A stretch of 64,000 nt of DNA from Candidatus Hydrogenedentota bacterium (GTDB lineage: Bacteria > Hydrogenedentota > Hydrogenedentia > Hydrogenedentales > CAITNO01): the NCBI GenBank assembly GCA_012730105.1, contig JAAYBJ010000003.1:13450-77449 (forward strand), written 5' to 3'. The translations under genes and the position numbers were made by a program. Positions 4,463 to 48,746 of the stretch are shown piece after piece (position 1 is the stretch's first letter; the number at the start of each line of letters is the position of its first letter). The notes under the pieces are model-generated. The model was not told where the DNA came from. It saw only the letters and a list, made by a program, of their open reading frames with translations, and ran no database searches.

Positions 4463-6182
4463 TGAAAGGGTCACCTGAGAGGCTGTTTTCGATATCGGTC
4501 ATCAGTCCAGGCTCCAGCCCCAGCGCCTGCTGAAAATAGACCGTTGCCCGGCCGACTTCGCCCAGGGCCAGCATGGCCTTGCCTGTTTCACAGGCCGCAA
4601 GCGCGGCCACCTGCTTCCAGCCTTCCAGTTTGGACAGGCCGATCAGGGGGGCGTAGACGTTCACTGCCGCTTCATATTCCTGAAGGCGCATCAATACCCT
4701 GCCCAACGACATCCGCGCCTCAATTTCATCCTGCGGGGCCGCGAGGGCCCCTTCCGGGTCTTTCGCACGGTGGCGCGCCTGGATATCCAGATAACGCTCA
4801 TAATGCCGCCGGGCCCCCGCGTAATTGTTTTCCAGATCCTCGTAGGTGACGGCGAGATTGTAATGAACACGAGCGCTTTCCGGATTCTCGCGGAGTGTTG
4901 CCCGAAACAGGGTGACATTGTCCCGCCAGTCCAGGTTTCTCCGGGCGGTCATGCCGATAAAAACCAGGCAGAGTACAGCCACCGCCGTCCAGGCCAGACG
5001 CCTCGCGCGCCCGCGCCCGCAAAGAGAGTGAATCATTTCCGCCAGGGCCCACCAGAAGCCTGCCATGGGCACATACATCCAATGTTCGGCCATGGGGGCA
5101 TTCAACGGGAAAACGCCGGAAATGGGCAGCCAGGCCACCAGGAACCAGGCACAGCCCGCGGCAATGCGCTTATTACCCCGGCGCCAGTAAAACATAATGG
5201 CCCCAAGCATTACAACGAGAAACGCCACGCCCAGCAGCACGTACGCCCCGGAGACATCGTCCAGGACCCGTTCCATATGCAGGCCCGTGGGCACGAAAAG
5301 CAGTTTCAGGTAGAGCCCCAAGGCCTGGGCCGCCTCGAACAGACGTTGCGTAACAGGCGCGGCGGCAGATCCCCCCCCCTCGGAGAAACGAAGCACGGTC
5401 GCACGCAGCGCCAGGTAGACGACAAGCATAGCTCCGGCGAGGACCGCCGGCGCGGCCGTTCTGAGCCGGGAGGGCCTGTTCCCTTCATTGCCCGCCTGGT
5501 CCCGCATTACCGGCAGCATCAGGAGAAGCAGAAAGGGATAGATGAGGGTGGACTCCTTGCTCAACAGCCCCGCTGCGAAACATGCCGCGGCGGCCGACAA
5601 GGGGAACGCGGGCCTTTCAGAACGCAAGGCGCGGTATGAAAAATACAGGGCGGCGAAAATCGCCATGCCTGACATCATGTCGGCCCGCCCGCTGATGTAG
5701 GCCACCGCTTCCGTATGCAGGGGATGCACGACGAAAATCAACGGGGCCGCGAGGCGGACGAAAGCCGGGGCGGCAAGACGGTGCAGCATCAGGGCGAACA
5801 GAAGGGCCGCCGCCAGGTGCAGGAGCATGTTCGTCAAATGAAAGGGGAAAGTGGGGATTTCCGGTCCCTTGGGATTTTCTTCGGCCTCCGGCCCCGGACC
5901 GCCCGAAAGCCAATAGTCCGCCATGAAAGACACGGACACCAGTGGCCGGTAAAAATTGCCCTCTCCCCTGCCGAAAGCGTGCTGGTCCTCCCGGAACAGT
6001 TGAAAGAACTTTCCGGGGTCGCGCACATGTTTGTGGAGGAGAACAGAGGAGGCATCATCCCACACCCACTCCCCCCGGAAGGTGTTGGCGTAAGCCAAAA
6101 CACATGCGAGCGCCAACAGCAATGCCACCGTCCACAGAAAGGCATGCGAGTCAGGCCTATTGTCCGTACGTTGCGGATACAT
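4449..6182 (-). CDS. TMTC/PMT-like multi-pass membrane protein with C-terminal TPR repeats (putative glycosyltransferase family 39-like)
   Basis: The N-terminus YANTFRGEWVWDDASSV is the hallmark of TMTC/DUF1736-type mannosyltransferase-like proteins. Roughly 10 predicted TM helices are followed by TPR-like repeats. The likely start is M at 6182 (MYPQR), not the upstream 6278. Confidence 0.65.
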   Translation of the reverse strand: MYPQRTDNRPDSHAFLWTVALLLALACVLAYANTFRGEWVWDDASSVLLHKHVRDPGKFFQLFREDQHAFGRGEGNFYRPLVSVSFMADYWLSGGPGPEAEENPKGPEIPTFPFHLTNMLLHLAAALLFALMLHRLAAPAFVRLAAPLIFVVHPLHTEAVAYISGRADMMSGMAIFAALYFSYRALRSERPAFPLSAAAACFAAGLLSKESTLIYPFLLLLMLPVMRDQAGNEGNRPSRLRTAAPAVLAGAMLVVYLALRATVLRFSEGGGSAAAPVTQRLFEAAQALGLYLKLLFVPTGLHMERVLDDVSGAYVLLGVAFLVVMLGAIMFYWRRGNKRIAAGCAWFLVAWLPISGVFPLNAPMAEHWMYVPMAGFWWALAEMIHSLCGRGRARRLAWTAVAVLCLVFIGMTARRNLDWRDNVTLFRATLRENPESARVHYNLAVTYEDLENNYAGARRHYERYLDIQARHRAKDPEGALAAPQDEIEARMSLGRVLMRLQEYEAAVNVYAPLIGLSKLEGWKQVAALAACETGKAMLALGEVGRATVYFQQALGLEPGLMTDIENSLSGDPFNDFY

Positions 6183-6335
6183 GATAGCCTCACGCGAATT
6201 TATAAATAAACCAGCCGCTATTTTTCTGCATCCCGACTTGCCTTCTGTAAGGGGCCTGCAAAACCGCTTCGCACCCATCGGGCACGCACCACATTCCCTT
6301 GGACTGTTGTGAGCAAAATTATTGCCCTGGTCTGG

Positions 6336-7884: not shown

Positions 7885-10008
7885 TTATTTGCCGCGTTTA
7901 CGCAGGGCCACCGCGCCTGCCAGGGCGGTAACGGCGGATGCAAGGGCAAGGCCCACCAAACCAGCCACCGGGATGCCCGTGCCCACAGTAAGGGTGATTT
8001 CGGGCGAAGGCTCGGTGTACATGGAATCCGACACGTCGCAGCGATAGACGCCGGAATCTTCCAGCTGGGCAGCCGCAATCGTGTACATCGGGGAATTCAG
8101 GGCGTCGGGAATCACAATAAACTCGCCGCCGATGTCCTGTTTCTTCCATTCGTAGCTGACGGCGCCGACCGCGCAGGAGGCGGGATCCAGCGCCACTTCG
8201 AGGGTAACCTCATCATCAGGCAAAGCACTGACGATCGTAACCGGTGCGGTGACGATGAGTTTGCAGGTTTCGCGCTGGACAATCACATCGAGATACGCCG
8301 TGTTGAGGTTGCCTATACCGTCAGAGGCCGTGTAGGAAACCACATGCGTACCGATCACGCCGGTATTTACGCTGCCGCTGTCAATGACAATGGATTCGGG
8401 CGGAATATCGCCTTCACAAGCGTCCCATGCCGTGGCGCCCTGCTCGATGTAGGGGGCGCCGCCGTCCAACACGACCGGGCTGGCTGCCAGCAGGGTGATG
8501 ACCGGGCCGGTGGTGTCCATGACATTCACCGTGCGAACCAAGGTGTCCGCTGCGAGGGGAACGCTGTCTGAAACGTCATAGGTGATCAAATAGGTGCCGG
8601 TAACGGCGGTATCCACTGTGTCACCGCCAATAATCACTTCAAGGTCGCCTTCGCACTGGTCCACCGCTGTGGCGCCGGGTTCTTCGTACGAGTCAATGTT
8701 GCACTCCAAGTTCATCGTATCGGCGCCATTCAGGCTCAGCACGGGCGCAAGGGTGTCGGCAATGGTCACCACGCGCTGTTTCTGACCGGCCGGGGTGCCT
8801 TCCAAGTCAACCACATCGTAGAGGATCGTGTAAACGCCGGGGGTGATCAGCGGGAAAGTGACATTGCTCATGACAATGGAGGCGGTCAGGTCGCCGTCCT
8901 CGGGATCGCTGGCGGATACGCCTTCCATGGCCATCAGCTCGGTATACCCTGTGGTATCGCATTCCATATCCACCGTTGCCGGGTCCACGGTAATGACCGG
9001 CCTGCCGCTGAAAGTGGCCTCAATGGTGTGCTCAGCCGTCACACCGGTAAAGGTATATGTATAGGTCTCCAGACCGCCTGCCTCGGTTACCGGCACGCCG
9101 TCCACCAGCACCTGGGCGATAACGTAATCCACGTTGGCATCCACCTGGAAGGCCTGGCTGCCACCGGAAAGGACCGGCACTTCGCCCGACGGGGTAATGG
9201 CGCCGTTGGCGCCCGCGCTGGCGTCAATGGTATAGGCCGCGCGGAAACGGACCGCCACGATACTCCAGTTGTCGCTCACGTTCAAGGTATATGAAAAATT
9301 CTGGGCCGTGTTGGCCGTTTTCACGAGATACCCGGTCAGACCTTTGATGGACGGTGTGGCATTGTTCTGCTGGTCCCACGTCTTGACCGGCGCGCGGCCG
9401 GTAACACTTGCCGAAGGGCCAGCGTTGTGCGTGGCGGCGTCTACCACCAGGTAATCCACGTTGGCAATGAATGAACTGATCAAGGGAGTGGTTCCCGTGC
9501 TTGCGGCGTCCTTGCCATTGGTATCGCCCACTACAGGCGCGAATGCGGGGTCCAGATTACCCATGACATGCACATGCACGACCTTGGCCTCGGTCAGGGC
9601 ATTGGCCATACGGATGCGGACGCTGTGATCGCCGGAAACAGCGTTGTCAATATGGCGGTATAACAGCGTCGTGCTTTGATGCATGGGGGCCACGCTGCGG
9701 ATGGCCTGACGCGCCTTGGTCAGCAACGCGCCGGCGTCGCCGTCCAGATTCGCCCAGTCCACCGTGACATAGTCCGCTGTGGGGCCGGTGTCTGTGCGCG
9801 CATGCACGGTGACGATAATGGTGCGGTTTCTGCCCGCGGGCACGGCGAAAAGGCCGGTATCGGCTTCCTGGCCGCTCACAATGAAGTCGTACCGAGCCAG
9901 CCTCACCGGCGCCGCCGTGGCCGACACGGCCATCAGGGCGAGCGCGAGGCACGCCATGCCGAAAACTACCGTCCGAGGGGCGGCACACCTTCTGGTTTTT
10001 ACTGTCAT
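7885..10008 (-). CDS. Secreted surface protein with tandem Ig-like (DUF5011/HYR-like) domains and a C-terminal GxPVAG-TM-RKRGK anchor
   Basis: Signal peptide MTVKTRRCAAPRTVVFGMACLALALMAVSATA. Repeated GATAxDxCEGDL...YxVxDxxGN motifs. Strong AGAAGGAG RBS before the ATG at 10008. The C-terminal ~90 aa are homologous to the C-terminus of the 10193..14497 product. Confidence 0.8.
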   Translation of the reverse strand: MTVKTRRCAAPRTVVFGMACLALALMAVSATAAPVRLARYDFIVSGQEADTGLFAVPAGRNRTIIVTVHARTDTGPTADYVTVDWANLDGDAGALLTKARQAIRSVAPMHQSTTLLYRHIDNAVSGDHSVRIRMANALTEAKVVHVHVMGNLDPAFAPVVGDTNGKDAASTGTTPLISSFIANVDYLVVDAATHNAGPSASVTGRAPVKTWDQQNNATPSIKGLTGYLVKTANTAQNFSYTLNVSDNWSIVAVRFRAAYTIDASAGANGAITPSGEVPVLSGGSQAFQVDANVDYVIAQVLVDGVPVTEAGGLETYTYTFTGVTAEHTIEATFSGRPVITVDPATVDMECDTTGYTELMAMEGVSASDPEDGDLTASIVMSNVTFPLITPGVYTILYDVVDLEGTPAGQKQRVVTIADTLAPVLSLNGADTMNLECNIDSYEEPGATAVDQCEGDLEVIIGGDTVDTAVTGTYLITYDVSDSVPLAADTLVRTVNVMDTTGPVITLLAASPVVLDGGAPYIEQGATAWDACEGDIPPESIVIDSGSVNTGVIGTHVVSYTASDGIGNLNTAYLDVIVQRETCKLIVTAPVTIVSALPDDEVTLEVALDPASCAVGAVSYEWKKQDIGGEFIVIPDALNSPMYTIAAAQLEDSGVYRCDVSDSMYTEPSPEITLTVGTGIPVAGLVGLALASAVTALAGAVALRKRGK

Positions 10009-10149
10009 GAATGCACTCCTTCTCTTTTTGCGGTTATGGGCCGCGCGTTCACTCACCCAAAAGATAATTCCACACTGCCTTTTTGATCGGACAGATCCGA
10101 CCGATCTGACTGATCACCTTATTTATCGATTCAATAAAGCCCAAAGGGC

Positions 10150-10192: not shown

Positions 10193-13100
10193 CTAGCGGC
10201 GCTTGCGCAGCGAGGCGACACCGGCGAGCGCGGAGGCGGCGGCTGCCAAGAGCAGGCCGAAGGCGCCCGCAACGGGCACACCGGAAGTGACGATGAGCGC
10301 CACTTCATTGGTGTCCACCGAACTCGACGCATCACTCACGCTGCACTTGTACGCCCCGGTATCCGTGAACTCGGCGCTTTCGATGACATAGATCGCCGCA
10401 TCCGGCGCATCCGGGATCACTTCGCCATTCTTCGTCCAGATGTAATGAAGTTCCCCGGCGCTGCAATTTTCAGACAACGGGGCGGCGGTGAAGGTCGAGG
10501 TGCCGCCCGGCGTTACCGGGTTAACGTCCACCGTCAGTTCATAAGCCAGCTCGCAGTCTTCGGGCTTCACCACCACGGTGCGCGCCGTCGCAACCGAATT
10601 CGCGGAGCTGTCACTGACCGTGTAGGTGAGCACATACGTGGCGACTTCATTTGTATTGGCCACGTCACCGTCGATAACGATGGCGCCGGACAGGTCGCCT
10701 TCGCATTCGTCCCACGCCTCGGCACCGGCTTCCACATAGAGGCTGCCGTCGGTGAGGATCACCGGGTTGTCGCCCAGCAGCGCGATGGACGGAGCCGTAG
10801 TATCCGCGACGGTCACCTCGCGCTCCGCGTTGGCAGTATTGCCGGCGCCGTCGGAAACGCTGTAGGTTACGATCTGCAGGCCGAGGACGGCGGTATTGGC
10901 GCCCTCGCCAATGACGATGGCACTGGTCAAGTCGCCTTCACAGACATCCGCCGCTGTCGCGCCGGCTTCTTCATAGATGTCGACGTTGCATTCCAACTGC
11001 AGTACGGCTTCGCCCAGCAGTTCAATCACCGGCGCGGCTGTGTCGGCCACCGTTACGGTCCGGGTGACTGTGGCCGCATTGCCCGCGGCGTCCTCGGCGT
11101 CGTAAGAAACGATATAGGCGTCGGGCACAGCTGTATTCACCAGGTCATCCCCGGTAATAATTACCGGCACAGAACCGTCTACGTTGTCTTCCGCGGTGGC
11201 GCCTGCTTCAATGAAGATGTCCGTATTGCATTCGAGCGTTTCATCGGAGCCGTTCATGGTAATCACAGGCGCTTCGCCGATGGCGCCGCCAAGATCGGAA
11301 CCTTCATTGTCGCGGATGAAGTTGCCCGCCGAATCTTCGACGGAGAAGGGCGTTACTGTAATCACAATATCGCCGCCGTTGAACATTTCATCGGGACGCA
11401 CCCAAACCAGACGGTATTCGGTGCCGCTCACCGTTTCCACACTGCTGGGATTGGCGGACAAGGTGCCGATGCCGGAACCGGAAACCGTGTAGTTGCCGGG
11501 AACATCCATGCCGATACCGCCCGTCATGTCCTTGTTGTAAGTCACCACGACAGTCAATTCGCTTTCCACTTGGACCAGCACGATATCCGGTTGTGAGGTA
11601 TCGAGCACGATCACCGTGCGGGTTACCTGCACCGCGTCGTTGCCCTGGGCGTCGGCAACATCATAAGTGACCGTGTAGGTGTCAGGAGTATTGGTGTCCA
11701 CCGGATTCACCGTGACAATGCTGCCGGTCAGGTCAACAGCGCCGCAACTGTCAGCGGCGGTGGCGCCAGCATCGGTGTAGACACTGAACATGTCCACGTA
11801 CACAACCGAGTCGCCTAGCAGGGTAATCACCGGCAGGGTGGTATCCACCACATGCACCGTGCGCGTCACCTGGGTCGCGGCATTAAGGGCCGTATCGCTG
11901 ACATCATAGGTGACCGTATAGTCGCCGACAACATCCACGTCCACCGGATTGACCGTAGAAATAGAACCGGTCAACTCACCGTCGCACACGTCATCAGCGG
12001 TCGCACCGGCATCGGTGTAACTGGTACTGCATTCCACCGTTACCTCCGCATCACCCACCAAGGTGATGACCGGCGCCGTGGTATCCACCACGTTGACCTG
12101 GCGCACAACCGGTATCGCGGCGTTACCCGCGGCATCAGATACGGTGTAGGTCACCGTGTAATTGCCGGGCACGGCCGTATCAACAGTGCTGACCGCGTTC
12201 GGGGTCAATGGCCCGTCGCAGTTATCATTCGCGGTGGCGCCAGCATCTGTGTAGGTGGCGCCGCATTCGACGGTCACCGGGCTCACGCCACTCATCGCAA
12301 TAACCGGCAGAACATCGTCCACCACCGTTACAGTGGCGTTGCACGATGCCAAATTACCCGCCCCGTCCCGCACATTCAACACTGCAGATACCGACGGCAT
12401 GTCGGCGCACGTAAAGGTCCGGGTTGCCGCACCGTCAATCAGCCACTGGGTGATGCCGCAGTTGTCCGTGCTCCCGCCGTCAATGGCATTGGCATTAATC
12501 GTGGGCGAACTCAAGTTCACTGTGATGTTCTTGCACACCGCGACCGGGTTGGTCGTGTCCGTAATGGTTAAGGTGGTATTGCAGGTGGCGGTAAGCCCGG
12601 CCGTATCCGTCACGGTGATGGTCACGGTTTGCGTACCCGTCACCATTGTACCGGCCGGGGGATTCTGGGCCACACTGGCGACACCACAATTATCCGCATA
12701 CACGCCGGTCGGGAGGAAGTTGGGCATGACCGCCTGGCAGTTGGCGTCGCCGACCGCCGACTGGGGCGGCGGGCAAACCGAAATCACCGGCGGCGTCACA
12801 TCCACCACCGTCACTACAGGACCGCAGGGCACTGCATTGCCACCCACGTCCGTTACCGTGATTTGAATCGGGATGGGGCCGAGCGGCAGAAGCGTGCCCG
12901 CGGCCGGGAATTGGGTAATACTCGCGATGCCGCAGTTGTCCGTCGCGGTTACCAGCGCGGCCAGGTTCGGCGCCGGCGCCACGCACGCGGCATTAGCGTT
13001 CAGTGTCTGATTGCCCGGGCAGAAAGTGATGACCGGGGCGATCGGGTCGTTCACGGTCACCGTGGCGTTGCACGTTGCCGTGCGGCCGATTCGATCCGTT

Positions 13101-14497
13101 ATGGTCAAGGTCACCGTCTTGCTCGGGATATCGGCGCTGCCGAAAGTGGTCTGAGAGGCAATACGCTTATAGATGCCCGCCTCGGCGATGCTGCCGCCGT
13201 CAATGTTGGCCGCTGTCATGGTGCCTGCACAACTGGCATCCAGGTTCACGGTGTAGGCCGCACACACGGCCGACGGCCCGTTCGCGCTGTATTCATACGC
13301 GCCCATATCACGCGCGCCGCCAAGCGGACGCGGGACCAGGCGAATGTCCTCAGTGATGGCCGAACTACCGGTATTCAAACAGGGCGCGCCGGTGATCTGA
13401 TAGGGGAACGGCGCGGCGCCGGAGAAGTTCGGGAGTGCATTGATATTGCCCGTGCCCGGATAGAGGCCGCCGTCAATATCGCTATAGGTACAGGTCAGGT
13501 TCTTTACGGCGCCGGTGATGGCGGCATTTACAATACCGACATTCCCTGTGTTGCCATAGGAGATGGCAGAAAGGACCGAGCCGGCCGTCGCGGGCAGGGT
13601 GCCCACGGTCACGTTAAAGATACCACCGCTGGTAAGACCATGATTCGGGTTGCCGGGCACAGCCGCACCCAAGCCCACGGTATTGGCCGTGATGGTGCAA
13701 TGAATCACTTGCGGCGTGGAAAGATTGATGAACAGGCCGCCGCCGCCTCGGGCCGGATTGCTCTGCCAGTCTAGGTTACGCGTGGCCGTGTTGCCGTCAA
13801 TCACGCAGTTGATGTACTGGGCGGCCGCCGCATCGCCCGAGATGCCTTCGTTCGCCACACCGCCGCCGCTGACGCTGGCGGTATTGCCGTAAATGCGGCA
13901 GTTGGCGATGACCGGGTTGGACCGCCAGTTGTAGATGCCGCCGCCGCGATAGGCATGATACACGCCCGATACGCCCGCGGCGTTACCGCCCGTAATCTGA
14001 AACCCGTCGAGTCTTGAACCCACCGTGGGGGCGGCGCCTTTGCCGAACACCACCACGTGATAGGCGGGACTGCCCGCGCGGGACGTGGCGCCGTTGATGA
14101 CGGTAACATTGATGCCGGGCGCGCGTTGGTTCAGGAGGGTTTCCTGCTGGCCCGTGCCGCCGCGCCATCCTTCAAACCCGCCATACACGGCGACGTTGTC
14201 CTTCATGACCAGCGAGCCGGCATAGGCGGTCGGGCCGCCCCACAATTCCGTGCGCGCTTCATTGTAGACCACGCCGCCCGGCGCACCGGCGACCCACACC
14301 TGGCCGCCGCCCGCGGCGAACATGGCGTCAATGGCGGGCTGAATCGTCGTAAAGGCGTTCTGCCACGACGTGCCGTTGTTCGCGCCCGTGGCGGATTTGT
14401 CCACGAATCTGACCTGCGCGTCAGCGTCTACTGCGGCAAAAAACGTTACCACAATAGCGCATAGGAAAACAGATAAAGACAATCGAGAGGGTTTCAT
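10193..14497 (-). CDS. Giant (1434-aa) secreted adhesin-like protein: N-terminal right-handed beta-helix (pectin-lyase fold) domain, about 10 Ig-like (DUF5011-type) repeats, and a C-terminal GVPVAG-TM-LRKRR anchor
   Basis: Signal peptide MKPSRLSLSVFLCAIVVTFFAAVDADA; TAAGGAG RBS. Beta-helix repeats (NCRIYGNTASVSGGGV, NCVIDGNTA). Repeated GATAxDxCDGxLT Ig-like modules. The C-terminal Ig-like domain and hydrophobic/basic tail are shared with the 7885..10008 product. Confidence 0.85.
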   Translation of the reverse strand: MKPSRLSLSVFLCAIVVTFFAAVDADAQVRFVDKSATGANNGTSWQNAFTTIQPAIDAMFAAGGGQVWVAGAPGGVVYNEARTELWGGPTAYAGSLVMKDNVAVYGGFEGWRGGTGQQETLLNQRAPGINVTVINGATSRAGSPAYHVVVFGKGAAPTVGSRLDGFQITGGNAAGVSGVYHAYRGGGIYNWRSNPVIANCRIYGNTASVSGGGVANEGISGDAAAAQYINCVIDGNTATRNLDWQSNPARGGGGLFINLSTPQVIHCTITANTVGLGAAVPGNPNHGLTSGGIFNVTVGTLPATAGSVLSAISYGNTGNVGIVNAAITGAVKNLTCTYSDIDGGLYPGTGNINALPNFSGAAPFPYQITGAPCLNTGSSAITEDIRLVPRPLGGARDMGAYEYSANGPSAVCAAYTVNLDASCAGTMTAANIDGGSIAEAGIYKRIASQTTFGSADIPSKTVTLTITDRIGRTATCNATVTVNDPIAPVITFCPGNQTLNANAACVAPAPNLAALVTATDNCGIASITQFPAAGTLLPLGPIPIQITVTDVGGNAVPCGPVVTVVDVTPPVISVCPPPQSAVGDANCQAVMPNFLPTGVYADNCGVASVAQNPPAGTMVTGTQTVTITVTDTAGLTATCNTTLTITDTTNPVAVCKNITVNLSSPTINANAIDGGSTDNCGITQWLIDGAATRTFTCADMPSVSAVLNVRDGAGNLASCNATVTVVDDVLPVIAMSGVSPVTVECGATYTDAGATANDNCDGPLTPNAVSTVDTAVPGNYTVTYTVSDAAGNAAIPVVRQVNVVDTTAPVITLVGDAEVTVECSTSYTDAGATADDVCDGELTGSISTVNPVDVDVVGDYTVTYDVSDTALNAATQVTRTVHVVDTTLPVITLLGDSVVYVDMFSVYTDAGATAADSCGAVDLTGSIVTVNPVDTNTPDTYTVTYDVADAQGNDAVQVTRTVIVLDTSQPDIVLVQVESELTVVVTYNKDMTGGIGMDVPGNYTVSGSGIGTLSANPSSVETVSGTEYRLVWVRPDEMFNGGDIVITVTPFSVEDSAGNFIRDNEGSDLGGAIGEAPVITMNGSDETLECNTDIFIEAGATAEDNVDGSVPVIITGDDLVNTAVPDAYIVSYDAEDAAGNAATVTRTVTVADTAAPVIELLGEAVLQLECNVDIYEEAGATAADVCEGDLTSAIVIGEGANTAVLGLQIVTYSVSDGAGNTANAEREVTVADTTAPSIALLGDNPVILTDGSLYVEAGAEAWDECEGDLSGAIVIDGDVANTNEVATYVLTYTVSDSSANSVATARTVVVKPEDCELAYELTVDVNPVTPGGTSTFTAAPLSENCSAGELHYIWTKNGEVIPDAPDAAIYVIESAEFTDTGAYKCSVSDASSSVDTNEVALIVTSGVPVAGAFGLLLAAAASALAGVASLRKRR

Positions 14498-14858
14498 CAC
14501 GTAGACTCCTTACGTTGTTGTTCCATCGAAGCACACCGCCAACGTGCAGACCGGGTACAGGACTACCGATGTAAAGATATCCTGTTGCCTCAACCCTTCA
14601 CTGTCGTGGCTCCGACGCCTCACATTACTTGTTTCTTATAAATACGACACCCAAGAAGAAACGCCTTGCGTTTCCATATTTTAGTAAAAATCCCAGACTA
14701 CCTGAATAACGCTTACACTACAGGGTAAATCAAATTTCACGAAAAGTCAAGAACTTTAAACGAGGCGCTTGTTTTTTCTCGGGCTAAATGCGATATACAT
14801 CACATCCAGATCTGACTGATATAGACACGGTCCATCAAACACGCATTATTCACAGTAT

Positions 14859-39718: not shown

Positions 39719-39857
39719 CACTCGCGTGGGATCCGGAAATCCCGGTTCGTCCCGCCACTTGTGGGCCCTGTTTTTTGTATGGTACAGTGAGGCTGCCGAT
39801 TTCACGTTGGTCCTGCGCAAAGACGGGGCCGGTGTTCCTGGCGATAAAGGTGCCCAG

Positions 39858-42197
39858 ATGAAATCCCAACTGATTCCTTCTCTGCTTCTGGCAATACTTG
39901 CGGCGGCATGTCCCTCTATGGGCACGGCGGATGACCAGCCTGAAAACCGGCCGGACGCCCGGCACCACCAGCGCCTGGTGGAAGACGACTGGCAGCTGCA
40001 GGAAGCGCGTCAGGGCCGGAACGCGGGAAGCCTGGAGGCGGTGCGCGCCGCCATGGTCAGGGCGGAAGCCCTGTACCAGGATCTTTCCGGGGTTGCCGGG
40101 ATGGAAGACTGCCGGGAACAAATGGAACTGTTCGCCCGACAAGTGGGCCGCGCCGAAGCCATGGAAGACAGCGAACGCCTGGCGCTTTATTACGCCCTGC
40201 GCTGGTTCACCCGCGAACTGGCGTTGCAGAATCCGCTGATCGCCGACACACCCCTGGTGTTCATGCAACGGCGCCGTTTCATCTGCCAGATGCTGCATGA
40301 ATATCTCGGCTATTATTATGATTACGGGGATATTGAAGGGGGCGGTGTCTTCATCCTCGAACAGCCCGGCAAGTCCTTTGCCGCGCGCGAACTGGTCCGC
40401 GGACGACTGCCACGGGGCAATTACACTACCCTGGCGCTTTCTTATGACGCAAAAACCATCCACTTTGCATTCGCGCCCCGCGCACCCGGGGAAAAACCGG
40501 ATTTCTATTCCGGTGAACGCCGCTGTTTTCATTTGTACAGCATGGACAGCGACGGAAACAACCTGCGGCCGCTGACGGAAGGACCTGACGACGATTTTGA
40601 TCCCTGCCCGCTGCCGGACGGCGGCATCGCGTTCATGTCCACCCGACGGGGCGGTTTCACGCGCTGCAACAACCCCTGGGAACCGCTGCCCGCCCACACG
40701 CTGCACCGGCTGGACCCGGACGGCGCAGTCCGTTGCCTGTCTTATCATGAGACCAGCGAGTGGCATCCGCAGGTGCTCCATGACGGGCGGATCGCCTACA
40801 TCCGATGGGACTATGTGGACCGTTCGGCGGCGCATTTCCACGGCATCTGGGCCACCAACCCCGACGGGACCGAAACGCGCCAGATTTTCGGCAATTATAC
40901 GCAACGGATCAACGCCTGTTATCAGCCGCATCCCGTGCCGGGTTCCCGCCGTCTGGCCTTTCTTGCCGGGGCCCATCACGCCAATGTCGGAGGATCACTT
41001 GTACTATTCGACCCCGCCAAAGCCGCCTTCGACCCCGCGACCGGGGAAGACGATTTCGGTTCCCTTGAACCGTTAACGCCGGAGGTATGTTTCGCGGAGA
41101 CGCCGGACGTGTGGCCTGAATCCTATTTTCACAGCCCCTGGCCGCTTTCAGAAGGCTATTTCCTCATCAGTTTCTCTTTTGATCCCCTGCCAGGCATGAG
41201 CGCCCGTACGAAAGAAGACACCGAAACGGGCATCTATCTGTGGGACCGGTTTGGAAACCTGGAACTCCTGTACCGTGAGCCCGGCATCTCCTGCATGTAT
41301 CCACTCCCCTTGAAACCACGGCCGATACCGCCCGCGCTGCCAAGCCGGCTTGATCCAACACTGGGCGATTCAGGAGAGTTTTATCTCGCCAATGTGTATG
41401 AAAGCCATTTACCATTCCCTAAAGACCGGCCGATCCACGGCTTGCATATTTATCAACTCCTGCCCAAAAGTGAAACGCATGTGGCCAACCAGCCGCGTAT
41501 CGGGTATGCCAATGCGGAATCCGCCCGGATGCTGCTGGGTTTCGTGCCGGTCGAAAAGGATGGTTCCGCCCGTTTCAAGGCGCCCGCCGGGAAACCGCTC
41601 GCCTTTCAGGCCGTGGATGAATCCGGCCGAGCGGTGCAGGGTATGCGCAGCGCCGTGTACCTGCAGCCGGGCGAACGCCGGAGTTGTGTGGGCTGCCATG
41701 AATCTCCGGAACGATCCGGAACTGTTCCCTTAGGAAAACAGATCGCCTTCGGCCGCGGGCCTTCCGAGATTACGCCCGGCCCGGACGGCGTCATGCCGTG
41801 GAGTTTTCCCAGGCTGGTGCAACCGATTCTGGACACGCACTGCGTCCGCTGCCATGGCGAAGCGGGCAATGCAAGACCATGCCTTGAGGCGAAGGTACAG
41901 GACGAATTTACTGAGGCTTACACCGTGCTGAAACCTTACGCGCGCTGGTACGAATGGGGCGGGGAAAGCATCAGCATAATTGTAACCCGTCCGGGCGAAA
42001 TGCCCGCCGACGTGAGTCCATTGACCGCCATACTGAATGATGCCAATCACGCGTCCGAACTGCGCCTGCCCGAGGCCGCGCAGCGAATCCTGTACTTGTG
42101 GCTGGACGGTAACGCGGCGTTTTACGGAACCTACTCGCCGACCGAGCGGCTCGCCCAGTTTGAAGGCAGTAAGGTGCCGCCTCCCGCGCTGCAGTGA
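39858..42197 (+). CDS. Secreted beta-propeller protein with C-terminal Planctomycete-type cytochrome c (PSCyt1-like) region, double CXXCH
   Basis: Signal peptide MKSQLIPSLLLAILAAAC. TolB/HzsA-like propeller segments. CVGCHESP and FPRLVQPILDTHCVRCHGEAGN, the latter matching the PSCyt1 consensus (V/I)xPILxxxCxxCHG. Confidence 0.8.
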   Translation: MKSQLIPSLLLAILAAACPSMGTADDQPENRPDARHHQRLVEDDWQLQEARQGRNAGSLEAVRAAMVRAEALYQDLSGVAGMEDCREQMELFARQVGRAEAMEDSERLALYYALRWFTRELALQNPLIADTPLVFMQRRRFICQMLHEYLGYYYDYGDIEGGGVFILEQPGKSFAARELVRGRLPRGNYTTLALSYDAKTIHFAFAPRAPGEKPDFYSGERRCFHLYSMDSDGNNLRPLTEGPDDDFDPCPLPDGGIAFMSTRRGGFTRCNNPWEPLPAHTLHRLDPDGAVRCLSYHETSEWHPQVLHDGRIAYIRWDYVDRSAAHFHGIWATNPDGTETRQIFGNYTQRINACYQPHPVPGSRRLAFLAGAHHANVGGSLVLFDPAKAAFDPATGEDDFGSLEPLTPEVCFAETPDVWPESYFHSPWPLSEGYFLISFSFDPLPGMSARTKEDTETGIYLWDRFGNLELLYREPGISCMYPLPLKPRPIPPALPSRLDPTLGDSGEFYLANVYESHLPFPKDRPIHGLHIYQLLPKSETHVANQPRIGYANAESARMLLGFVPVEKDGSARFKAPAGKPLAFQAVDESGRAVQGMRSAVYLQPGERRSCVGCHESPERSGTVPLGKQIAFGRGPSEITPGPDGVMPWSFPRLVQPILDTHCVRCHGEAGNARPCLEAKVQDEFTEAYTVLKPYARWYEWGGESISIIVTRPGEMPADVSPLTAILNDANHASELRLPEAAQRILYLWLDGNAAFYGTYSPTERLAQFEGSKVPPPALQ

Positions 42198-43131: not shown

Positions 43132-44943
43132 ATGATGAAGAAAAATGTGTTTATCTGCGTGTTGATTCTGGCGATTACAGGTCCGGCCTTTGCCGTGCAT
43201 ACCCCGGTACCGGATATGGATTCCTGTCCACCAACAGTGGACGAATACGGCACACCCATCAACTGGAACTTTGTTCCGCTGCCCCTGTTCAATATCAATG
43301 TGCTTGGCAGTACTGTAAATTTTACACCCATTGCCGGACAAGTGGACTTCTGTGCCTATACGGACATCATCTTTTGTTCCCTGGGACCTGTGGGGGATTT
43401 GGTACCTGAGGTAATGGCTTTTGCCAACCTGGTGCAATGCAACGGATTTAAACGGATTTACGAATGGACCTGTCCCTGCACAAGTACGGTACAAACAGGC
43501 GTGGTGCCGGACGGTGAATGTGTCACTTATGTTGAAGGAGAGACTTCGGAAGGGGAGATCGCATGTCAGCAAGAGTGGGTGCGGGGCAGTCTGGTCGAAA
43601 GTATCCCCGTGCACATGGATATCAATGGTCCTATTGACTTACAGGCGGAACTGCCAGTCACCGGCAACGGCATTCCGGACGGCCAGTATGAGCTTGGAAT
43701 TCTTGCGGCCATTTACAATGACGATACCCATCCCCTGCATGCAACCGTGGTTGCCGCCTATCAGGCGAACTATAAGGCGGTCAAAGATTTAATTGTGGAT
43801 GCCCTTGCCGCCGCGAATTTAAAAAATGACAAAGACCTTCGCCCGATTGTACAATCCGTCGCGCCCTATCTGGTAAGGGCTTTAAGCTCGATTCTGGCCG
43901 GCTTTGCCACTATGGCTGATCCCCAAACTAATATGGCGCTCGACCAGTTGCTTTTGCTGCTGGCGGAAATTGGTATTGCCCCGCCCGAGGGCGGCATAGC
44001 CGGGATTGCGACAGGTATTCCCGAACTGGGGCCGGAAGGCGACGCGGACGGCGGCGGCGCCACCAACCGTCAGGAGTATGAATACTTTGTAACAGTACTC
44101 GGCTATGGTCCGGCCGAGTACGTGGCCGCCGCTCTTGATCCCGCACAGGAACCGCCCGTGGAGAATGAAGGCGAAACTGAAACAGAAGGCGAAGGCGAAG
44201 CGGTGCCTGAAGGGGAAGGCGAAATCGTCGCCGAAGGTGAAGTGTCGTCCGAAGGCGAGGGCGAAGGGATGAGTGAAGGCGAAGCCCCATACGAAGGTGA
44301 ACCCTCCGGGGAAGGCGAGTTTGAATCTGAAGGCGAGATACCGGCCGAAGGGGAAATCGTTGTAGAAGGCGAGGGTGAAGCCGCTGCTGAAGGTGAAATC
44401 GTTGACGAAGGCGAGGGTGAAGCCGCTGCTGAAGGCGAAATCATTGAAGAAGGCGAGGGTGAAGCCGCTGCTGAAGGCGAAATCGTTGAAGAAGGCGAGG
44501 GTGAAACCGCTGCTGAAGGCGAAATCATTGAAGAAGGCGAGGGTGAAGCCGCTGCTGAAGGCGAAATCGTTGAAGAAGGCGAGGGCGAAGCGCCTGCAGA
44601 AGGTGAAGGCGAAGCGCCTGCAGAAGGTGAAGGCGAAGCGCCTTCAGAAGGTGAGGGTGAAATCGTTGCCGAAGGAGAAGGAGAAGCACTTGCAGAAGGA
44701 GAAGGTGAAGTCATTGCCGAAGGAGAAGGAGAAGCACTTGCAGAAGGAGAAGGTGAAGTCATTGCCGAAGGCGAAGGAGAAGCACCTGCAGAAGGTGAAG
44801 GCGAAGACGAGACTTCCAGCTGCTGCGGCACCTCTGGGAAAGACATGAACATCAGGAAACTCATGGACCGCACCATCGGTGATTGGTTATTAATCGGCAT
44901 GAGTCTGTTGGGATTGACGGCATTCTCCCTTGTCCGTAAATAA
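43132..44943 (+). CDS. Secreted acidic-repeat protein A: signal peptide, ~320-aa unique domain, ~215 aa of EGEGExxA-type tandem repeats, Cys-rich/GDWLLIG C-terminal anchor module
   Basis: Perfect GAAGGAGG RBS. Signal peptide [20 protein letters not shown]. Repeats run from about residue 340. C-terminus [42 protein letters not shown]. Confidence 0.85.
44160..44810 (+). repeat. Coding tandem repeats (24-bp basic period, 42-bp super-period) encoding [12 protein letters not shown](V/I)(E/D) units
   Basis: Direct reading. Generates frame-artefact ORFs on both strands (SPSPS... and KAKSLKK...). Confidence 0.8.
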
Positions 44944-44967
44944 ACTGTTTCATGACACAATAATGAA

Positions 44968-44989
44968 TTTCCTCGGAGGAAACATTTTT
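44968..44989 (+). terminator. Weak terminator-like hairpin plus T-run after gene A
   Basis: TTTCCTcggAGGAAA followed by CATTTTT. Short AU-rich stem. Confidence 0.3.
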
Positions 44990-45333
44990 CGGCGTGAGTT
45001 GTACCCTATGTAGCGGTATGCGCGATGCCCTATTCATTAGGGAGCCTTTACCGAAGGCTCTTTCTTAAGAAGCAAATGTTTTGGCCACCTCGAAATGTCT
45101 TAATCGGCAGGTCATCCCGCGTTCGGGTTGCGGCTGTGTGCTGCGAGGGACGAACGAAACTGACAGTTGGGCGTGCTTGACGTACGTTTTTGGCGCTTTC
45201 ACCAGGGTGCCCCCCAAGTAGTGGATAACGCCCTTGGTACCAGTGACATAGACAATAGGGTATGGTATACGGCAAGGAATGACATGGGTTCAAACACATG
45301 TTTATTCACAATAAGTTGCACTGCAAAATGTAT

Positions 45334-45362
45334 TTGACATAAATTTGAATAAACTGTATATT
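45334..45362 (+). promoter_or_regulatory. Sigma70-consensus-like promoter for gene B (TTGACA-N17-TATATT)
   Basis: Exact -35 TTGACA, a 17-nt spacer, and -10 TATATT about 75 nt upstream of the ATG at 45441. Lies in a 500-bp, lower-GC intergenic region. Confidence 0.5.
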
Positions 45363-45440
45363 AACTGTGTTAATGGATGAGTGCGGTTAGAAAATCTTCG
45401 TTCTTTGGGTTGAAGCCAACAATTTAAAAAGGGATGCACC

Positions 45441-48400
45441 ATGAAAAAGATACTGGTAAGTGTTTTGGGTCTTGCGATCTGCCTGCTGCCGATGGCGGTA
45501 TTTGCCGCTCCCGGTGATGTGCCCATGCCGGATACGGTCCTGGAGGCTGCCGTTGAAGCGGAAATCGGCGATGACGGGGTCAGCGGCGCTGTGGACAGCA
45601 CCCTGCTGCTGAACCTCGTCCAATTGGGCGGGCTCGATGATTTTCCCAACCAACTGGTCACCGGCGTAACGGACTTAACGGGGCTGGAAGCGGCAACAAA
45701 TCTCGAGTTTTTGCTGTTGTTAAACGGTGATATCGACAGTCTGGAACCAGTTGCGGATTTGCCCGCCTTAACCGGCCTGGCCCTGTTCGATATGGGCGTT
45801 GAGGACGCCGATGTGGCGGAACTTGCCGCCGGAACCGCTGAACCTGTTGCGTTACTGATTTCAAACCTGGGAACAGGAACTCCGAACGACCTGACCACCA
45901 CGGGTATTAATAGTATTGGTCAGATCGGCAGTATTGTGGAACTGTCTCTGTCGGGCTTGGGAAATGAATTTGACATCTCAGGTTTAAGCACCTTGTCGCT
46001 GGGGGATTTGGGTTTTGGTCTTGGACTGTCCATGGACGGCAATACCATTGTGGACGGGTTTGAAGTTATCGCCGGGTTTACAGGCCTGACGGCGCTTTCA
46101 CTTGGCCAAACAGGCATTACCAGTGCAGACTTGGACCTCGTTGACTGGTCCCTGATGACCAGCCTGGGGGAATTGCTGCTGCCCTTCAATGCCATTACGG
46201 ATATTTCCATGTTGCTGGATCTCGGAGCTCCGTCCGGCGCAATTATAGACCTTGCCGGCAACCCCCTTGATAATGCCGCTGTATGTACGCATATCCCCGC
46301 GTTAGTAACTGCCGGTTATACCGTTTTGGATGGCCAGGTTCTCCCCTGTGGTTCCCCAGTACTTACCCTGACTCTGAACGGTGTAGGCGAAATCAATCCC
46401 GCGCCAGGTGAGTACCGCTATGAGGTCGGTACGGAAGTGTTTCTAAATGCCAACCAGATCAGCGGCGGTGGTGTTTTTTCCCATTGGACTGGTGACGTGG
46501 CGGATCCTAGCAACCCGAACACCAGCATCGTCATGAATGCAGACGAGGCTGTGGAGGCGGTGTTTGTGGATGGCGACTATACATTGACGATCCAGTACGC
46601 CGGGGACGGAACGGGCGTTACCTCTCCCCCGGCAGGCGTATGGGCCTATCAGGACGGGGCTTCCGTTGGCTTGAATTTTACCCCCGACCCGGGCAATTTC
46701 TGGGGCGGCTGGCAGGGGGATCTTACGGGCATTATCGCCAATACGATCATCATGGACAGCGACAAAACGGTTACGGCCGTATTCGGCGCCACAGGTTATG
46801 ATTTGATCATCGGCGTAAATGATACAGATCTGGGCTTTACCTTTCCGGTGATGGGCACGTATCCCCTTGCAACGGGAACCGTGGTGGATATCAACGCGAT
46901 TGTGGACTTCTCCGAGCCAACCTATATTTTCGGTGAATGGACCGGTGATATCGGCACGGCCGATCCTGCCAACCCAGAACTGCAGGTCACCATGGACCAG
47001 GCGCGTACCGTCACCGCCAACTTCAGAAAACCTGAGTTAACCATCAGCATCACTGGGGAAGGGACAACGAATCCCGTACCGGGAGTATATCCGTATGACA
47101 ACGGCGCCTTTGCCGCTGTGACTGCGACACCCGCCGATGGATGGTTTTTCGTCGGTTGGCAAGGTGATGCGGAAGGGGCAGGTGAATTAAATATTTTGAT
47201 GGACGGCGACAAGGCGGTAACAGCGGTATTCGAACAGATTCCCGTCTATACGCTGACCATTAATGCCGCTGATGGTGGTTCCACTAATCCGCCAGCGGGA
47301 AGTTATCCCTATGATGAAGGTGCCGTTGTGGAAATAACTGCCACACCGGAGACAGGATGGCAATTCCTTCGCTGGGAGGGCGACGTTACCAGTACCGACC
47401 CCTCCACTTTGGTTAATATGGATGGCGATAAAACAGTAACGCCCGTTTTTGAAATTTTATCCTACGATGTCACCATTAATGTTGTAGGCAATGGAACGAC
47501 CTTGCCTGCCGCAGGTACCTCTCCATGGGATTACGGGTCGGTAGTGATGATCACGGCCACTCCTGCAACTGGATGGCAATTTGTACGCTGGGAAGGCGAC
47601 TTTTCTGTTCCGAATCCGGAAGTGCCCAACTTCGCTGAAGTAGAAGTGGACGGTCCGAAAACCGTAACCGCGGTGTTCGAACAGATTACCTATACACTGA
47701 CTATTTCAGTGGCAGGCGATGGCACTACAGATCCCCCTACAGGCGGGGTTTACACTTCAGGTACGCCTGTAACGATTACAGCCCAGCCTGCGGATGGTTG
47801 GAACTTTGCCAGATGGGAAGGGGATGTTTCCGGTACGGAATCCACACTATCGTTCACTATGGATAGCGACATATCCGTTACGGCGGTCTTTGAAGAGCAA
47901 ATAATTGAAGGCGAGGGTGAAACCCCTGTTGAAGGCGAAGGCGAAGCCCCTGTTGAGGGTGAAGGTGAAGAACCCATTGAAGGCGAAGGCGAAGAGCCCG
48001 TCGAAGGCGAAGGTGAAGAACCCGTCGAAGGCGAAGGCGAAGAGCCCGTCGAAGGCGAAGGTGAAGAACCCGTCGAAGGCGAAGGTGAAGAACCCGTCGA
48101 AGGCGAAGGTGAAGAACCTGTCGAAGGCGAAGGCGAAGAACCTGTCGAAGGCGAAGGCGAAGAACCTGTCGAAGGCGAAGGTGAAGAACCTGTCGAAGGC
48201 GAAGGTGAAGAACCTGTCGAAGGCGAAGGTGAAGAACCTGTCGAAGGCGAAGGTGAAGAACCTGTCGAAGGTGAAGGTGAAGCCCCTGTCGAAGGCGAAG
48301 GTGAAGAACCTGTCGAAGGCGAAGGTGAAGAACCTGTCGAAGGTGAAGGTGAAGCCCCTGTCGAAGGTGAAGGCGAAGAGCCTGTCGAAGGCGAAGGCGA

Positions 48401-48689
48401 AGAACCTGTCGAAGGCGAAGGTGAAGCCCCCGTTGAGGGCGAAGGTGAAGTAACCGCCGAAGGCGAGGGCGAAGAACCTGTCGAAGGTGAAGGCGAAGAG
48501 CCTGTCGAAGGCGAGGGTGAAACCCCCGTTGAGGGCGAAGGCGAGGGCGAAGAAGAAGCCTGCGGTTGCTGCCAGCAGAATGAAAAAGCCCTTACCATAA
48601 AAGAAATGGTAGAAAAGAGTTTGGGCGACTGGCTGTTAATCGGCGTAAGCCTTCTTGGACTTACGGCTTTGGCCGGTATGCGCAAATAA
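45441..48689 (+). CDS. Secreted acidic-repeat protein B, internalin-like: signal peptide, leucine-rich repeats, about 8 InlB-B-repeat (Listeria-Bacteroides repeat)-type domains, about 27 copies of EGEGEEPV, Cys-rich/GDWLLIG C-terminal anchor
   Basis: AAAGGGA RBS. Signal peptide [25 protein letters not shown]-like LxxLxxLxLxxNxI segments. Repeated YTLTIxxxGxGTxxPxxGxYxYxxGxxVxLxAxPxxGWxFxxWxGD modules. C-terminus [43 protein letters not shown]. Confidence 0.85.
47905..48555 (+). repeat. Near-perfect 24-bp coding tandem repeats (GAAGGCGAAGGTGAAGAACCTGTC x about 27) encoding EGEGEEPV
   Basis: Direct reading. Copies differ mostly at synonymous third positions (gag/gaa, ccc/cct, gtc/gtt). Confidence 0.85.
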
Positions 48690-48705
48690 TCTTCCATAAT
48701 TAATT

Positions 48706-48746
48706 GCGGGGCCGCTTCAGCAATGAAGCGGCCCCGTTTGCTTTAT
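48706..48746 (+). terminator. Rho-independent terminator after gene B
   Basis: 13-bp GC-rich stem CGGGGCCGCTTCA/TGAAGCGGCCCCG with loop GCAA, followed by TTTGCTTTAT. Confidence 0.7.

Follow-up and report, generated by a model that had tools for sequence, protein, structure and literature searches.

C-terminal sorting signals are the handles that decide which bacterial proteins become fixed on the cell surface. To our knowledge, the recognition of each new signal of this kind has brought a new sorting enzyme to light (sortase, exosortase, archaeosortase, rhombosortase and, latest, myxosortase). Here we analyse a stretch of 64,000 nucleotides (the window) from a Candidatus Hydrogenedentota bacterium (GenBank assembly GCA_012730105.1, contig JAAYBJ010000003.1, positions 13,450 to 77,449), in which two adjacent genes, A and B, encode predicted secreted proteins that end in one and the same C-terminal module. 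We call this module the GDW tail, after its Gly-Asp-Trp motif. As far as sequence analysis reaches, the view that it is an undescribed sorting or anchoring module is supported.

Which described signals come closest to it? These are the cysteine-containing tripartite signals, MYXO-, JDVT-, Synerg- and CGP-CTERM, which are cleaved by myxosortases of the CPBP/Rce1 type and for which lipidation of the cysteine has been proposed (10.1101/2023.06.07.544157; PMC11980579). MYXO-CTERM cargo is displayed by way of a type II secretion system (T2SS), and TraA needs both its cysteines and the CPBP protease (PMC11980579). The tail of TraA, ...GGAFCCGTTADATPAGSTT-FLLLLAAGLTFL-RPRRPAR, consists of an FCCG motif, a spacer of about 13 residues, a transmembrane (TM) segment and a basic end. 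With this class at hand the GDW tail is not without precedent. A first-pass annotation of the locus had been unable to match the tail to any described signal; this stands for the curated models of NCBIfam and Pfam, while the cysteine-containing class had been missed.

The features of the two genes are as follows; the genes come from the list of open reading frames (ORFs), the signal peptides were read from the sequence, and the stalks were delimited by Tandem Repeats Finder and composition.

43132-44943, forward strand: gene A, 603 residues (NLV42906.1, locus tag GXY07_00225; identical to cluster P0001)
43132-43194, forward strand: signal peptide of A, residues 1-21 (KK, hydrophobic core, AFA followed by V)
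43195-44166, forward strand: passenger of A, residues 22-345, a Hydrogenedentota-specific alpha-helical domain
44167-44814, forward strand: acidic repeat stalk of A, residues 346-561, of EGEGEAxA and EGEIVEEG units
44815-44943, forward strand: tail of A, residues 562-603 plus stop, GDW starting at 44878
45334-45362, forward strand: promoter-like site upstream of B, TTGACA-17-TATATT, 11/12 matches, a consensus match only
45441-48689, forward strand: gene B, 1082 residues
45441-45506, forward strand: signal peptide of B, residues 1-22 (KK, hydrophobic core, VFA followed by A)
45507-46352, forward strand: N-terminal region of B resembling leucine-rich repeats (LRR), about residues 23-304, from weak LRR_4/internalin matches below curated cut-offs; bounds approximate
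46353-47906, forward strand: seven divergent InlB B-repeat domains of B (PF18998, Flg_new_2), about residues 305-822, from Pfam; bounds approximate
47907-48560, forward strand: acidic repeat stalk of B, residues 823-1040, about 26 units of EGEGEEPV
48561-48689, forward strand: tail of B, residues 1041-1082 plus stop, GDW starting at 48624
48706-48737, forward strand: strong terminator-like hairpin 3' of B, with a 14-bp stem, 10 GC pairs and a T-rich tail

Both reading frames are open without a break from signal peptide to tail. The signals appear by inspection to be of the classical signal peptidase I type: the n-region is basic, the core hydrophobic and the c-region AxA-like. They were judged by eye and by a crude hydropathy rule; cleavage is predicted to leave the mature N-termini VHTP (A) and APGD (B), and the N-terminal pattern of A's signal recurs in its homologues. 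The proteins are strongly acidic, with net charges of -114 (A) and -197 (B). The first-pass annotation had described two adjacent genes on one strand with Sec-type signal peptides and unrelated central domains, and so they are: a helical domain in A, an LRR-like region and InlB B-repeats in B. The term 'paralogous pair', on the other hand, has to be given up, the two genes having only the repeat and tail modules in common. Against PF18998 the passenger of B scores 211 bits in seven stretches (cut-off 23.6, E=1.7e-63), above the gathering score, and with its LRR-like region B looks like an adhesin. GenBank lists protein A, from a 163-kb contig of a Candidatus Hydrogenedentes metagenome-assembled genome (MAG), as a 'hypothetical protein'; the organism belongs to Candidatus Hydrogenedentes/Hydrogenedentota and not, as first assigned, to the PVC (Planctomycetes-Verrucomicrobia-Chlamydiae) group.

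The tails of A and B align without a gap and are identical at the C-C pair, a lysine, GDWLLIG, SLLGLTA and the final RK; the window holds no third copy in any frame. Could such a resemblance have arisen by chance? We took only the two tails as the basis of a profile and searched 1.84 billion protein cluster representatives with HMMER at E<=1e-3. The search gave 44 matches, one of which (P0035) was rejected as a false positive, its GDWLVIG repeats lying internally in a beta-helix. The other 43 are true and all stand at the extreme C-terminus, stopping no more than a few residues short of it. That two tails should find 43 C-terminal matches in so large a set places their resemblance far beyond chance. 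The clusters come from NCBI, JGI, ENA and Logan assemblies, and independent DNA-pattern scans located the tail at 10 metagenome loci. In a scan of about 185,000 species representatives one carrier genome emerged, a MAG of Candidatus Hydrogenedentota in which two tail genes stand in tandem (L017). The first pattern used there, [TS][IL]GDWLLIG, yielded no confirmed locus and misses the common G-L-GDWLLIG form; it was a broader alignment that found the MAG. In a word-indexed protein search the two-tail alignment found nothing, a weak negative since identical fragments at contig edges exist, and a 38-tail profile found short fragments only. Exact look-ups of A, B and P0005 in a contig index gave no match; access to the window's context came by way of its SOD gene.

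Who carries the tail? All taxonomically labelled carriers are Candidatus Hydrogenedentota, a phylum predicted to be Gram-negative and diderm, the Raetz lipopolysaccharide pathway being present in more than 94% of 179 genomes (PMC11406978). The recovered contigs derive from metagenomes, for example from anaerobic digesters. The papers on Hydrogenedentota genomics consulted here describe no isolate and make no mention of sorting systems, and a string search of a literature library for the tail motif and the repeat unit retrieved no paper. At least three tail genes occur in the source MAG (A, B and the fragment GXY07_14960, P0005) and two in L017. The only public names of tail proteins are 'hypothetical protein' and 'GLUG motif-containing protein', from which it follows that the NCBI pipeline recognises no sorting domain here. 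The passengers that precede the tail belong to at least six unrelated architectures. They include GLUG repeats (in many members), NosD/Chlam_PMP beta-helices with PASTA domains, CarboxypepD_reg-like repeats, FGE-sulfatase with dockerin-like segments, EF-hands, HYR/Ig domains, and LRR with InlB B-repeats; the tails behind such unrelated passengers remain some 36-62% identical to that of B. Signal-peptide-like N-termini were seen in 19 of the 29 members of at least 200 residues, and the other 10 look truncated. The carriers thus have the attributes of sorting substrates: signal-peptide-like N-termini, unrelated architectures and several representatives per genome. Further proteins with this ending had been anticipated by the first-pass annotation, and 43 clusters, the metagenome loci and the MAG now provide them. 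In L017 a small paralogous lipoprotein-like gene (MxMFRKAVVLALVVSGMVALxGC...) follows each of the tandem tail genes (3846-4184 and 5661-6014, forward strand); it has no counterpart between A and B.

The family consensus is (acidic)-C-G-C-C-x4-K-x-L-[ST]-[LP]-[KR]-[ED]-L-[FLI]-[ED]-R-T-L-G-D-W-L-[LV]-[IV]-G-[LMV]-S-L-x-x-L-x-A-[LF]-x3-[RK][RK]. Its geometry is rigid. The distance from the last Cys to the G of GDW is exactly 18 residues in 36 of 41 members, and in 33 of 42 the interval from GDW to the C-terminus is 21-23 residues; GDW is followed by some 17 hydrophobic residues and then 1-3 R/K. The positions richest in information are the Cys cluster (3.8 bits), K14 (3.95), R24 (3.3), GDW (4.2) and G33 (4.1). 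Within the Cys cluster C8 is invariant, C9 is present in 33/35 and C6 in 27/35 members. The outer half of the hydrophobic stretch is better conserved than the inner half (2.9 vs 1.9 bits), a bias from which Haft argues that an intramembrane enzyme recognises such signals (10.1101/2023.06.07.544157). The more distant members P0068-P0072 keep CGCC and the core LGDWLL(I/V)GLSLL, with a spacer of 11-13 residues. A sub-branch (P0032, P0038, P0068, L021 9758-10177 and L018 9789-10156) combines a Cys-GDW spacer of that length with EF-hand/dockerin-like Ca-binding motifs before the tail. Gene calling has, on several contigs, split the tail off as a tiny ORF of its own, probably through frameshifts or assembly errors in the repeats.

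AlphaFold2 (AF2), a check that the first-pass annotation had proposed, was run with an alignment of 35 sequences. It predicts a single continuous helix that passes through the membrane span, from residue 18, the S/T-P N-cap, to residue 46, at a predicted local distance difference test (pLDDT) of 83-95. In the tail of B the helix is unbroken from T(IKEM..) to the end, with the same range of pLDDT. The Cys cluster lies in a non-helical segment of low confidence. Taking model and conservation together, we read the tail as a series of modules: the CGCC cluster, an 8-residue linker with an invariant Lys, the S/T-P N-cap, a 9-residue juxtamembrane helix ending in R-T-L, an interfacial G-D-W, about 17 hydrophobic residues and, facing the cytoplasm, 1-3 basic ones. 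It is tripartite in the accepted sense, with signature motif, TM segment and basic cluster at the extreme C-terminus, the last of these weaker than usual. The grammar of a sorting signal that had been noticed in A and B is thus conserved, and modular, across the 43 clusters.

Does any known signal account for it? Neither the NCBIfam (release 20, June 2026) nor the Pfam models gave a sorting-signal match at E<=10 to four isolated tails or to the full proteins. At the same threshold GDW tails matched none of TIGR03901, TIGR02595, TIGR03501, TIGR01167 and the IPTL-, PGF-, CGP-, Synerg- and JDVT-CTERM models. The best unrelated sub-threshold match was to LPxTATN, at 12.8 bits against a cut-off of 32, and covered the TM part only; a search of PDB sequences with the tail profile gave chance-level matches only. 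Among the findings that the first-pass annotation had named as undoing its proposal are a match to a known family and a lack of other carriers together with a lack of any co-occurring enzyme; with no model matching and many carriers, neither applies.

We then compared the tail with its nearest analogues. MYXO-CTERM and the GDW tail are both lineage-restricted: in a diderm host, each closes, at the very C-terminus, surface proteins that begin with a signal peptide and whose many passengers are unrelated. Their Cys motifs are of one kind, often GCGC in MYXO-CTERM, FCCG in TraA and CGCC here. The Cys is invariant in both, but in the GDW tail the cluster sits 18 residues from the TM boundary. Those 18 residues form a fixed, conserved helical spacer (invariant K, helix N-cap, R-T-L) unlike anything in MYXO-CTERM, and the near-invariant G-D-W at the membrane boundary likewise has no counterpart there. 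The basic end is only 1-3 residues long, and the phylum is a different one. MYXO-CTERM cargo requires the T2SS; one GDW-tail gene adjoins T2SS genes. Aligned to the TraA tail by hhalign, the GDW tail reached a probability of 2.6% over 8 columns around CC only, so that homology is not detectable. Since homology is undetectable and the helical spacer and GDW have no counterpart, we do not file the tail as a MYXO-CTERM member, although by analogy it would work like a signal of that type.

The remaining analogues stand further off. PEP-CTERM/exosortase, PGF-CTERM/archaeosortase and IPTL-CTERM resemble the GDW tail in being tripartite, in following a low-complexity spacer and in having several carriers per genome. 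PEP-CTERM differs by its PEP motif; the GDW tail has no PEP-like motif and possesses instead the Cys cluster and the 18-residue spacer. GlyGly-CTERM/rhombosortase, as in Vibrio VesB, is also a C-terminal TM signal of diderm surface proteins with conserved small residues opening the helix, and its cargo is T2SS-dependent. Its motif, however, is another one, TIGR03501 does not match the tail, and no rhomboid gene was seen in the contexts examined.

What, then, is the evidence within this lineage that the tail fills an anchoring slot? It comes from the passenger of A. About 65 homologue clusters of this domain (P0073-P0137) were found, all labelled ones from Hydrogenedentes; an invariant DINGP and a Ca-loop-like DADGDG loop (TSP3/dockerin-like) characterise the family. 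Its AF2 model has a pLDDT of 81 and a predicted template modelling score (pTM) of 0.79; there is no structural neighbour and no Pfam or NCBIfam match. Protein A alone in the family has a Cys-containing insert of about 55 residues, at about residues 105-160, after LVQC. No synteny was found among the loci around the homologues of A. Nearly all homologues inspected have about 400 residues and consist of the passenger, an Ig domain and a tail of the form VPVGG..LAGACALAGVAGLRRRK. In about 60 clusters this tail, VPVGG...LAGACALAGVAGLRRRK, stands in place of the GDW tail: VPVGG, a TM segment and RRRK occupy the same slot. In isolation it reaches 16.2 bits with the PEP-CTERM model (cut-off 16) and 16.7 with that of IPTL-CTERM. 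The scan for sorting signals was therefore able to detect signals of this sort, the second tail serving as positive control. It looks like a lineage-specific PEP-CTERM-like signal, which would imply an exosortase-type system in the phylum. Two large Ig-repeat surface proteins (PF16403) of the window carry a tail of this second class, G[IV]PVAG with a hydrophobic helix and LRKR(R/GK):

7885-10056, reverse strand: Ig-repeat surface protein (PF16403)
10193-14500, reverse strand: Ig-repeat surface protein (PF16403)

One of the two also has HYR and choice-of-anchor Q domains. Since homologues of A's passenger bear the second tail, the two tails are interchangeable anchors. This exchange is the strongest internal evidence, as we read the sequences, that the GDW tail fills an anchor or sorting slot. 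In P0073 and P0075 the tail is replaced by another C-terminal domain of about 70 residues, which lacks a TM segment.

We consider it somewhat more probable than not that A and B belong to the cell envelope of a diderm Hydrogenedentota, that they are exported by Sec and that their C-terminal module of about 45 residues is a sorting or anchoring signal that is processed. Most likely the tail would direct anchoring at the cell surface through a putative enzyme. By analogy with MYXO-CTERM/myxosortase and GlyGly-CTERM/rhombosortase we infer cleavage, Cys modification, an enzyme, a T2SS route and surface exposure, in the following order. After export by Sec the C-terminal helix would retain the precursor in the inner membrane, N-out/C-in. 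A dedicated membrane enzyme would recognise the face of the tail at the outer-leaflet boundary; modification of the Cys cluster, most likely by a lipid, and removal of the helix would come next. Thus matured, the protein would then cross the outer membrane, plausibly by the T2SS. Finally the modified C-terminus would tether the protein, and the acidic stalk would keep the passenger away from the surface.

Several observations weigh against this reading. Neither the 64-kb window nor some 240 kb of related contigs yielded a CPBP protein, exosortase, rhombosortase or sortase; the search covered these loci (some 300 kb) rather than a genome, with Pfam run on about 30 window proteins and on the polytopic membrane proteins near tail genes. 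Next to the Arg-rich termini of classical signals the basic cluster, usually RK, KK or RR, is weak. In length the module is about double PEP-CTERM, PGF-CTERM or GlyGly-CTERM, and the conserved helical spacer that parts the Cys cluster from the membrane would also suit a permanent structural anchor. The adjacency to T2SS genes, at L019, is one case. Moreover, GDWLLIG lay within the recruiting profile and pattern, and the conservation of the motif is to that extent ascertainment. The peaks are nevertheless informative, because G38, T40 and A41, identical in the two seed tails, are not conserved in the family, whereas R24 is conserved even though the seeds differ there.

Is a partner to be found among the neighbours? 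A signature scan for CPBP (PF02517) over the 508 ORFs of the roughly 300 kb gave no credible match. Pfam annotation yielded nothing beyond a Na/Ca exchanger, MgtE, PlsY, a CDP-alcohol transferase, PAP2 and glycosyltransferases of PMT-like type; the polytopic proteins next to tail genes elsewhere are unrelated housekeeping and transport proteins. Polytopic TPR/PMT-like proteins (window 4449-6278, L011 and L019) were considered as a common partner and rejected, being mutually unrelated by BLASTP. At L019 (37-7517, forward strand) GspK-, GspL/PilM- and GspM-like genes stand directly upstream of a tail gene on the same strand; its product, of 914 residues, has beta-helix, InlB-repeat and EGEGE modules. 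This arrangement may connect the tail with type II secretion.

Might the tail be, instead, a permanent and unprocessed type-I anchor of the inner membrane, served by no sorting enzyme? The GDW/GxxxxxG face and the juxtamembrane helix would then oligomerise, the cysteines would make inter-chain disulfides or a metal site, and the stalk would span or fill the periplasm. The continuous helix of 29 residues, the interfacial Trp and the positive-inside end in the AF2 model do have the look of a plain anchor, and the want of an enzyme candidate in the contexts searched, the weak basic cluster, the unusual length with its fixed spacer and the lack of a matching curated model all suit it. But a plain anchor has no need of an invariant G-D-W, K14, R24 and Cys cluster across unrelated passengers, and in a diderm it would trap in the periplasm passengers of extracellular or adhesin character (LRR/InlB, GLUG, PASTA, dockerin-like, Ig). 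The passenger family of A, besides, otherwise bears a PEP-CTERM-like tail, and in samples that are mostly anoxic and digester-type, structural periplasmic disulfides would be less expected. We regard this main alternative as possible and, on the whole, unlikely.

It is less likely again that the CGCC-(18)-GDW tail is the substrate of a wholly undescribed sorting system, in which a modifiable Cys cluster and a separate helical GDW element would be read by an enzyme outside the sortase, exosortase/archaeosortase, rhombosortase and CPBP/myxosortase families. If true, such a system would define how Hydrogenedentota builds its cell surface, in parallel with the PEP-CTERM-like system in the same cells.

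What role might be played by the acidic repeats? In A, residues 346-561 contain 85 E, 50 G and no K or R; in B, the counts over residues 823-1040 are 103 E, 55 G and 25 P, again with no K or R. Tandem Repeats Finder resolves the DNA of B into 25.6 copies of 24 nt (47907-48521, 89% matches) and that of A into mixed periods of 24, 42 and 96 nt (44167-44806). The first-pass annotation was right about the 8-residue Glu/Gly periodicity and the charge, put the extent at about 215 residues (about 217 here), and was slightly high in counting about 27 copies in B. It further suggested Ca2+ binding and biomineralisation. One may go further and suppose that binding of cations (Ca2+ or metal) or nucleation of mineral by the polyglutamate repeats is the defining function, the tail being only the tether of a metal-sequestering or biomineralising layer. 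Some 85-103 Glu with no basic residue per region of about 217 residues, EF-hand/dockerin-like motifs before the tail in relatives (P0032, P0038, P0068, L021) and the DADGDG loop in A's own passenger would agree with this, as would the Na/Ca exchanger (L007) and MgtE (L013) that adjoin two tail genes. Yet the transporters are single, non-recurrent neighbours, and a clearly acidic stretch (>=28% D/E) precedes only 21 of 43 tails, so that the repeats are frequent and not obligatory. EGEGE repeats also occur independently of the tail, as inter-domain linkers far from it or before other C-terminal domains (P0008, P0025, P0073). Their number differs among alleles: P0045, an allele of A, has 619 residues instead of 603, with two additional 8-residue units, as one would expect of a length-tolerant spacer. 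Repeats that are non-obligatory, used elsewhere as linkers and variable in copy number favour a length-tolerant, polyanionic stalk, and the EGEGExxx region of about 217 residues is almost certainly disordered. Cation binding as such is plausible; as the defining function it seems to us very doubtful. The suggested Ca2+/biomineralisation role has no direct support, and the sequences agree better with a spacer or stalk. The Na+/Ca2+ exchanger (L007 4268-5227) and the MgtE Mg2+ transporter (L013 12047-13420) lie within a few kb of their tail genes, a proximity that is probably coincidental.

The design recalls the staphylococcal Sdr/Clf adhesins (MSCRAMMs), which likewise join a signal peptide, a binding domain, a long acidic stalk of dipeptide type and variable length, and a C-terminal sorting signal. 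Those, however, have Ser-Asp repeats and LPXTG, whereas A and B have Glu-Gly repeats, no LPXTG, a diderm host and no sortase in sight; matches of their repeats to ClfB and serine-rich models are weak and compositional (15-23 bits against cut-offs of 650-999). The 3' end of B recurs on the metagenome contigs L001 and L003-L006 of the same organism, and the 5' ends of these contigs all fall inside the repeats of B. Long repeats systematically break short-read assemblies, so that EGEGE proteins are likely to be under-represented or truncated in MAG catalogues.

That the tail is a chance similarity or an assembly or annotation error in a repeat-rich region may be dismissed as next to impossible, for although short-read contigs do end inside the repeats and long mechanical antisense ORFs do cover both of them, neither gene is interrupted between signal peptide and tail, GenBank contains a protein identical to A, and the tail occurs in at least 43 independent clusters.

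The GDW tail offers a clean, computable marker for a set of Hydrogenedentota surface proteins, whether adhesin-like, glycan-related or of beta-helix type. As a hidden Markov model it would carry annotation beyond 'hypothetical', and could be the query with which partial phylogenetic profiling looks for the partner enzyme. Two classes of C-terminal tail on homologous passengers in one cell also raise the question whether the tails specify different destinations.

A few features of the window remain to be recorded. It contains no Rfam families and no tRNAs, and none of the small ORFs between A and B is credible. Antisense ORFs of the SPSPS... type at 44103-44960 and 47750-48697 (reverse strand) were rejected as mechanical by-products of the GAAGGC-rich repeats; they overlap the two acidic repeats and might be taken for genes. 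At 31-1569 (forward strand) is an ATPase of type II secretion or type IV pili (PF00437, E=3e-127) whose N-domain is MshEN; the two ORFs that follow are unannotated. The ATPase gene lies about 41 kb from gene A, and we claim no linkage. Directly upstream of a UDG-family gene and gene A, at 39726-42197 (forward strand), is a gene for a secreted protein of 823 residues whose middle domain is of the hydrazine-synthase-alpha type (PF18582) and whose C-terminal part bears a CxxCH motif for haem binding (HCVRCHGE).

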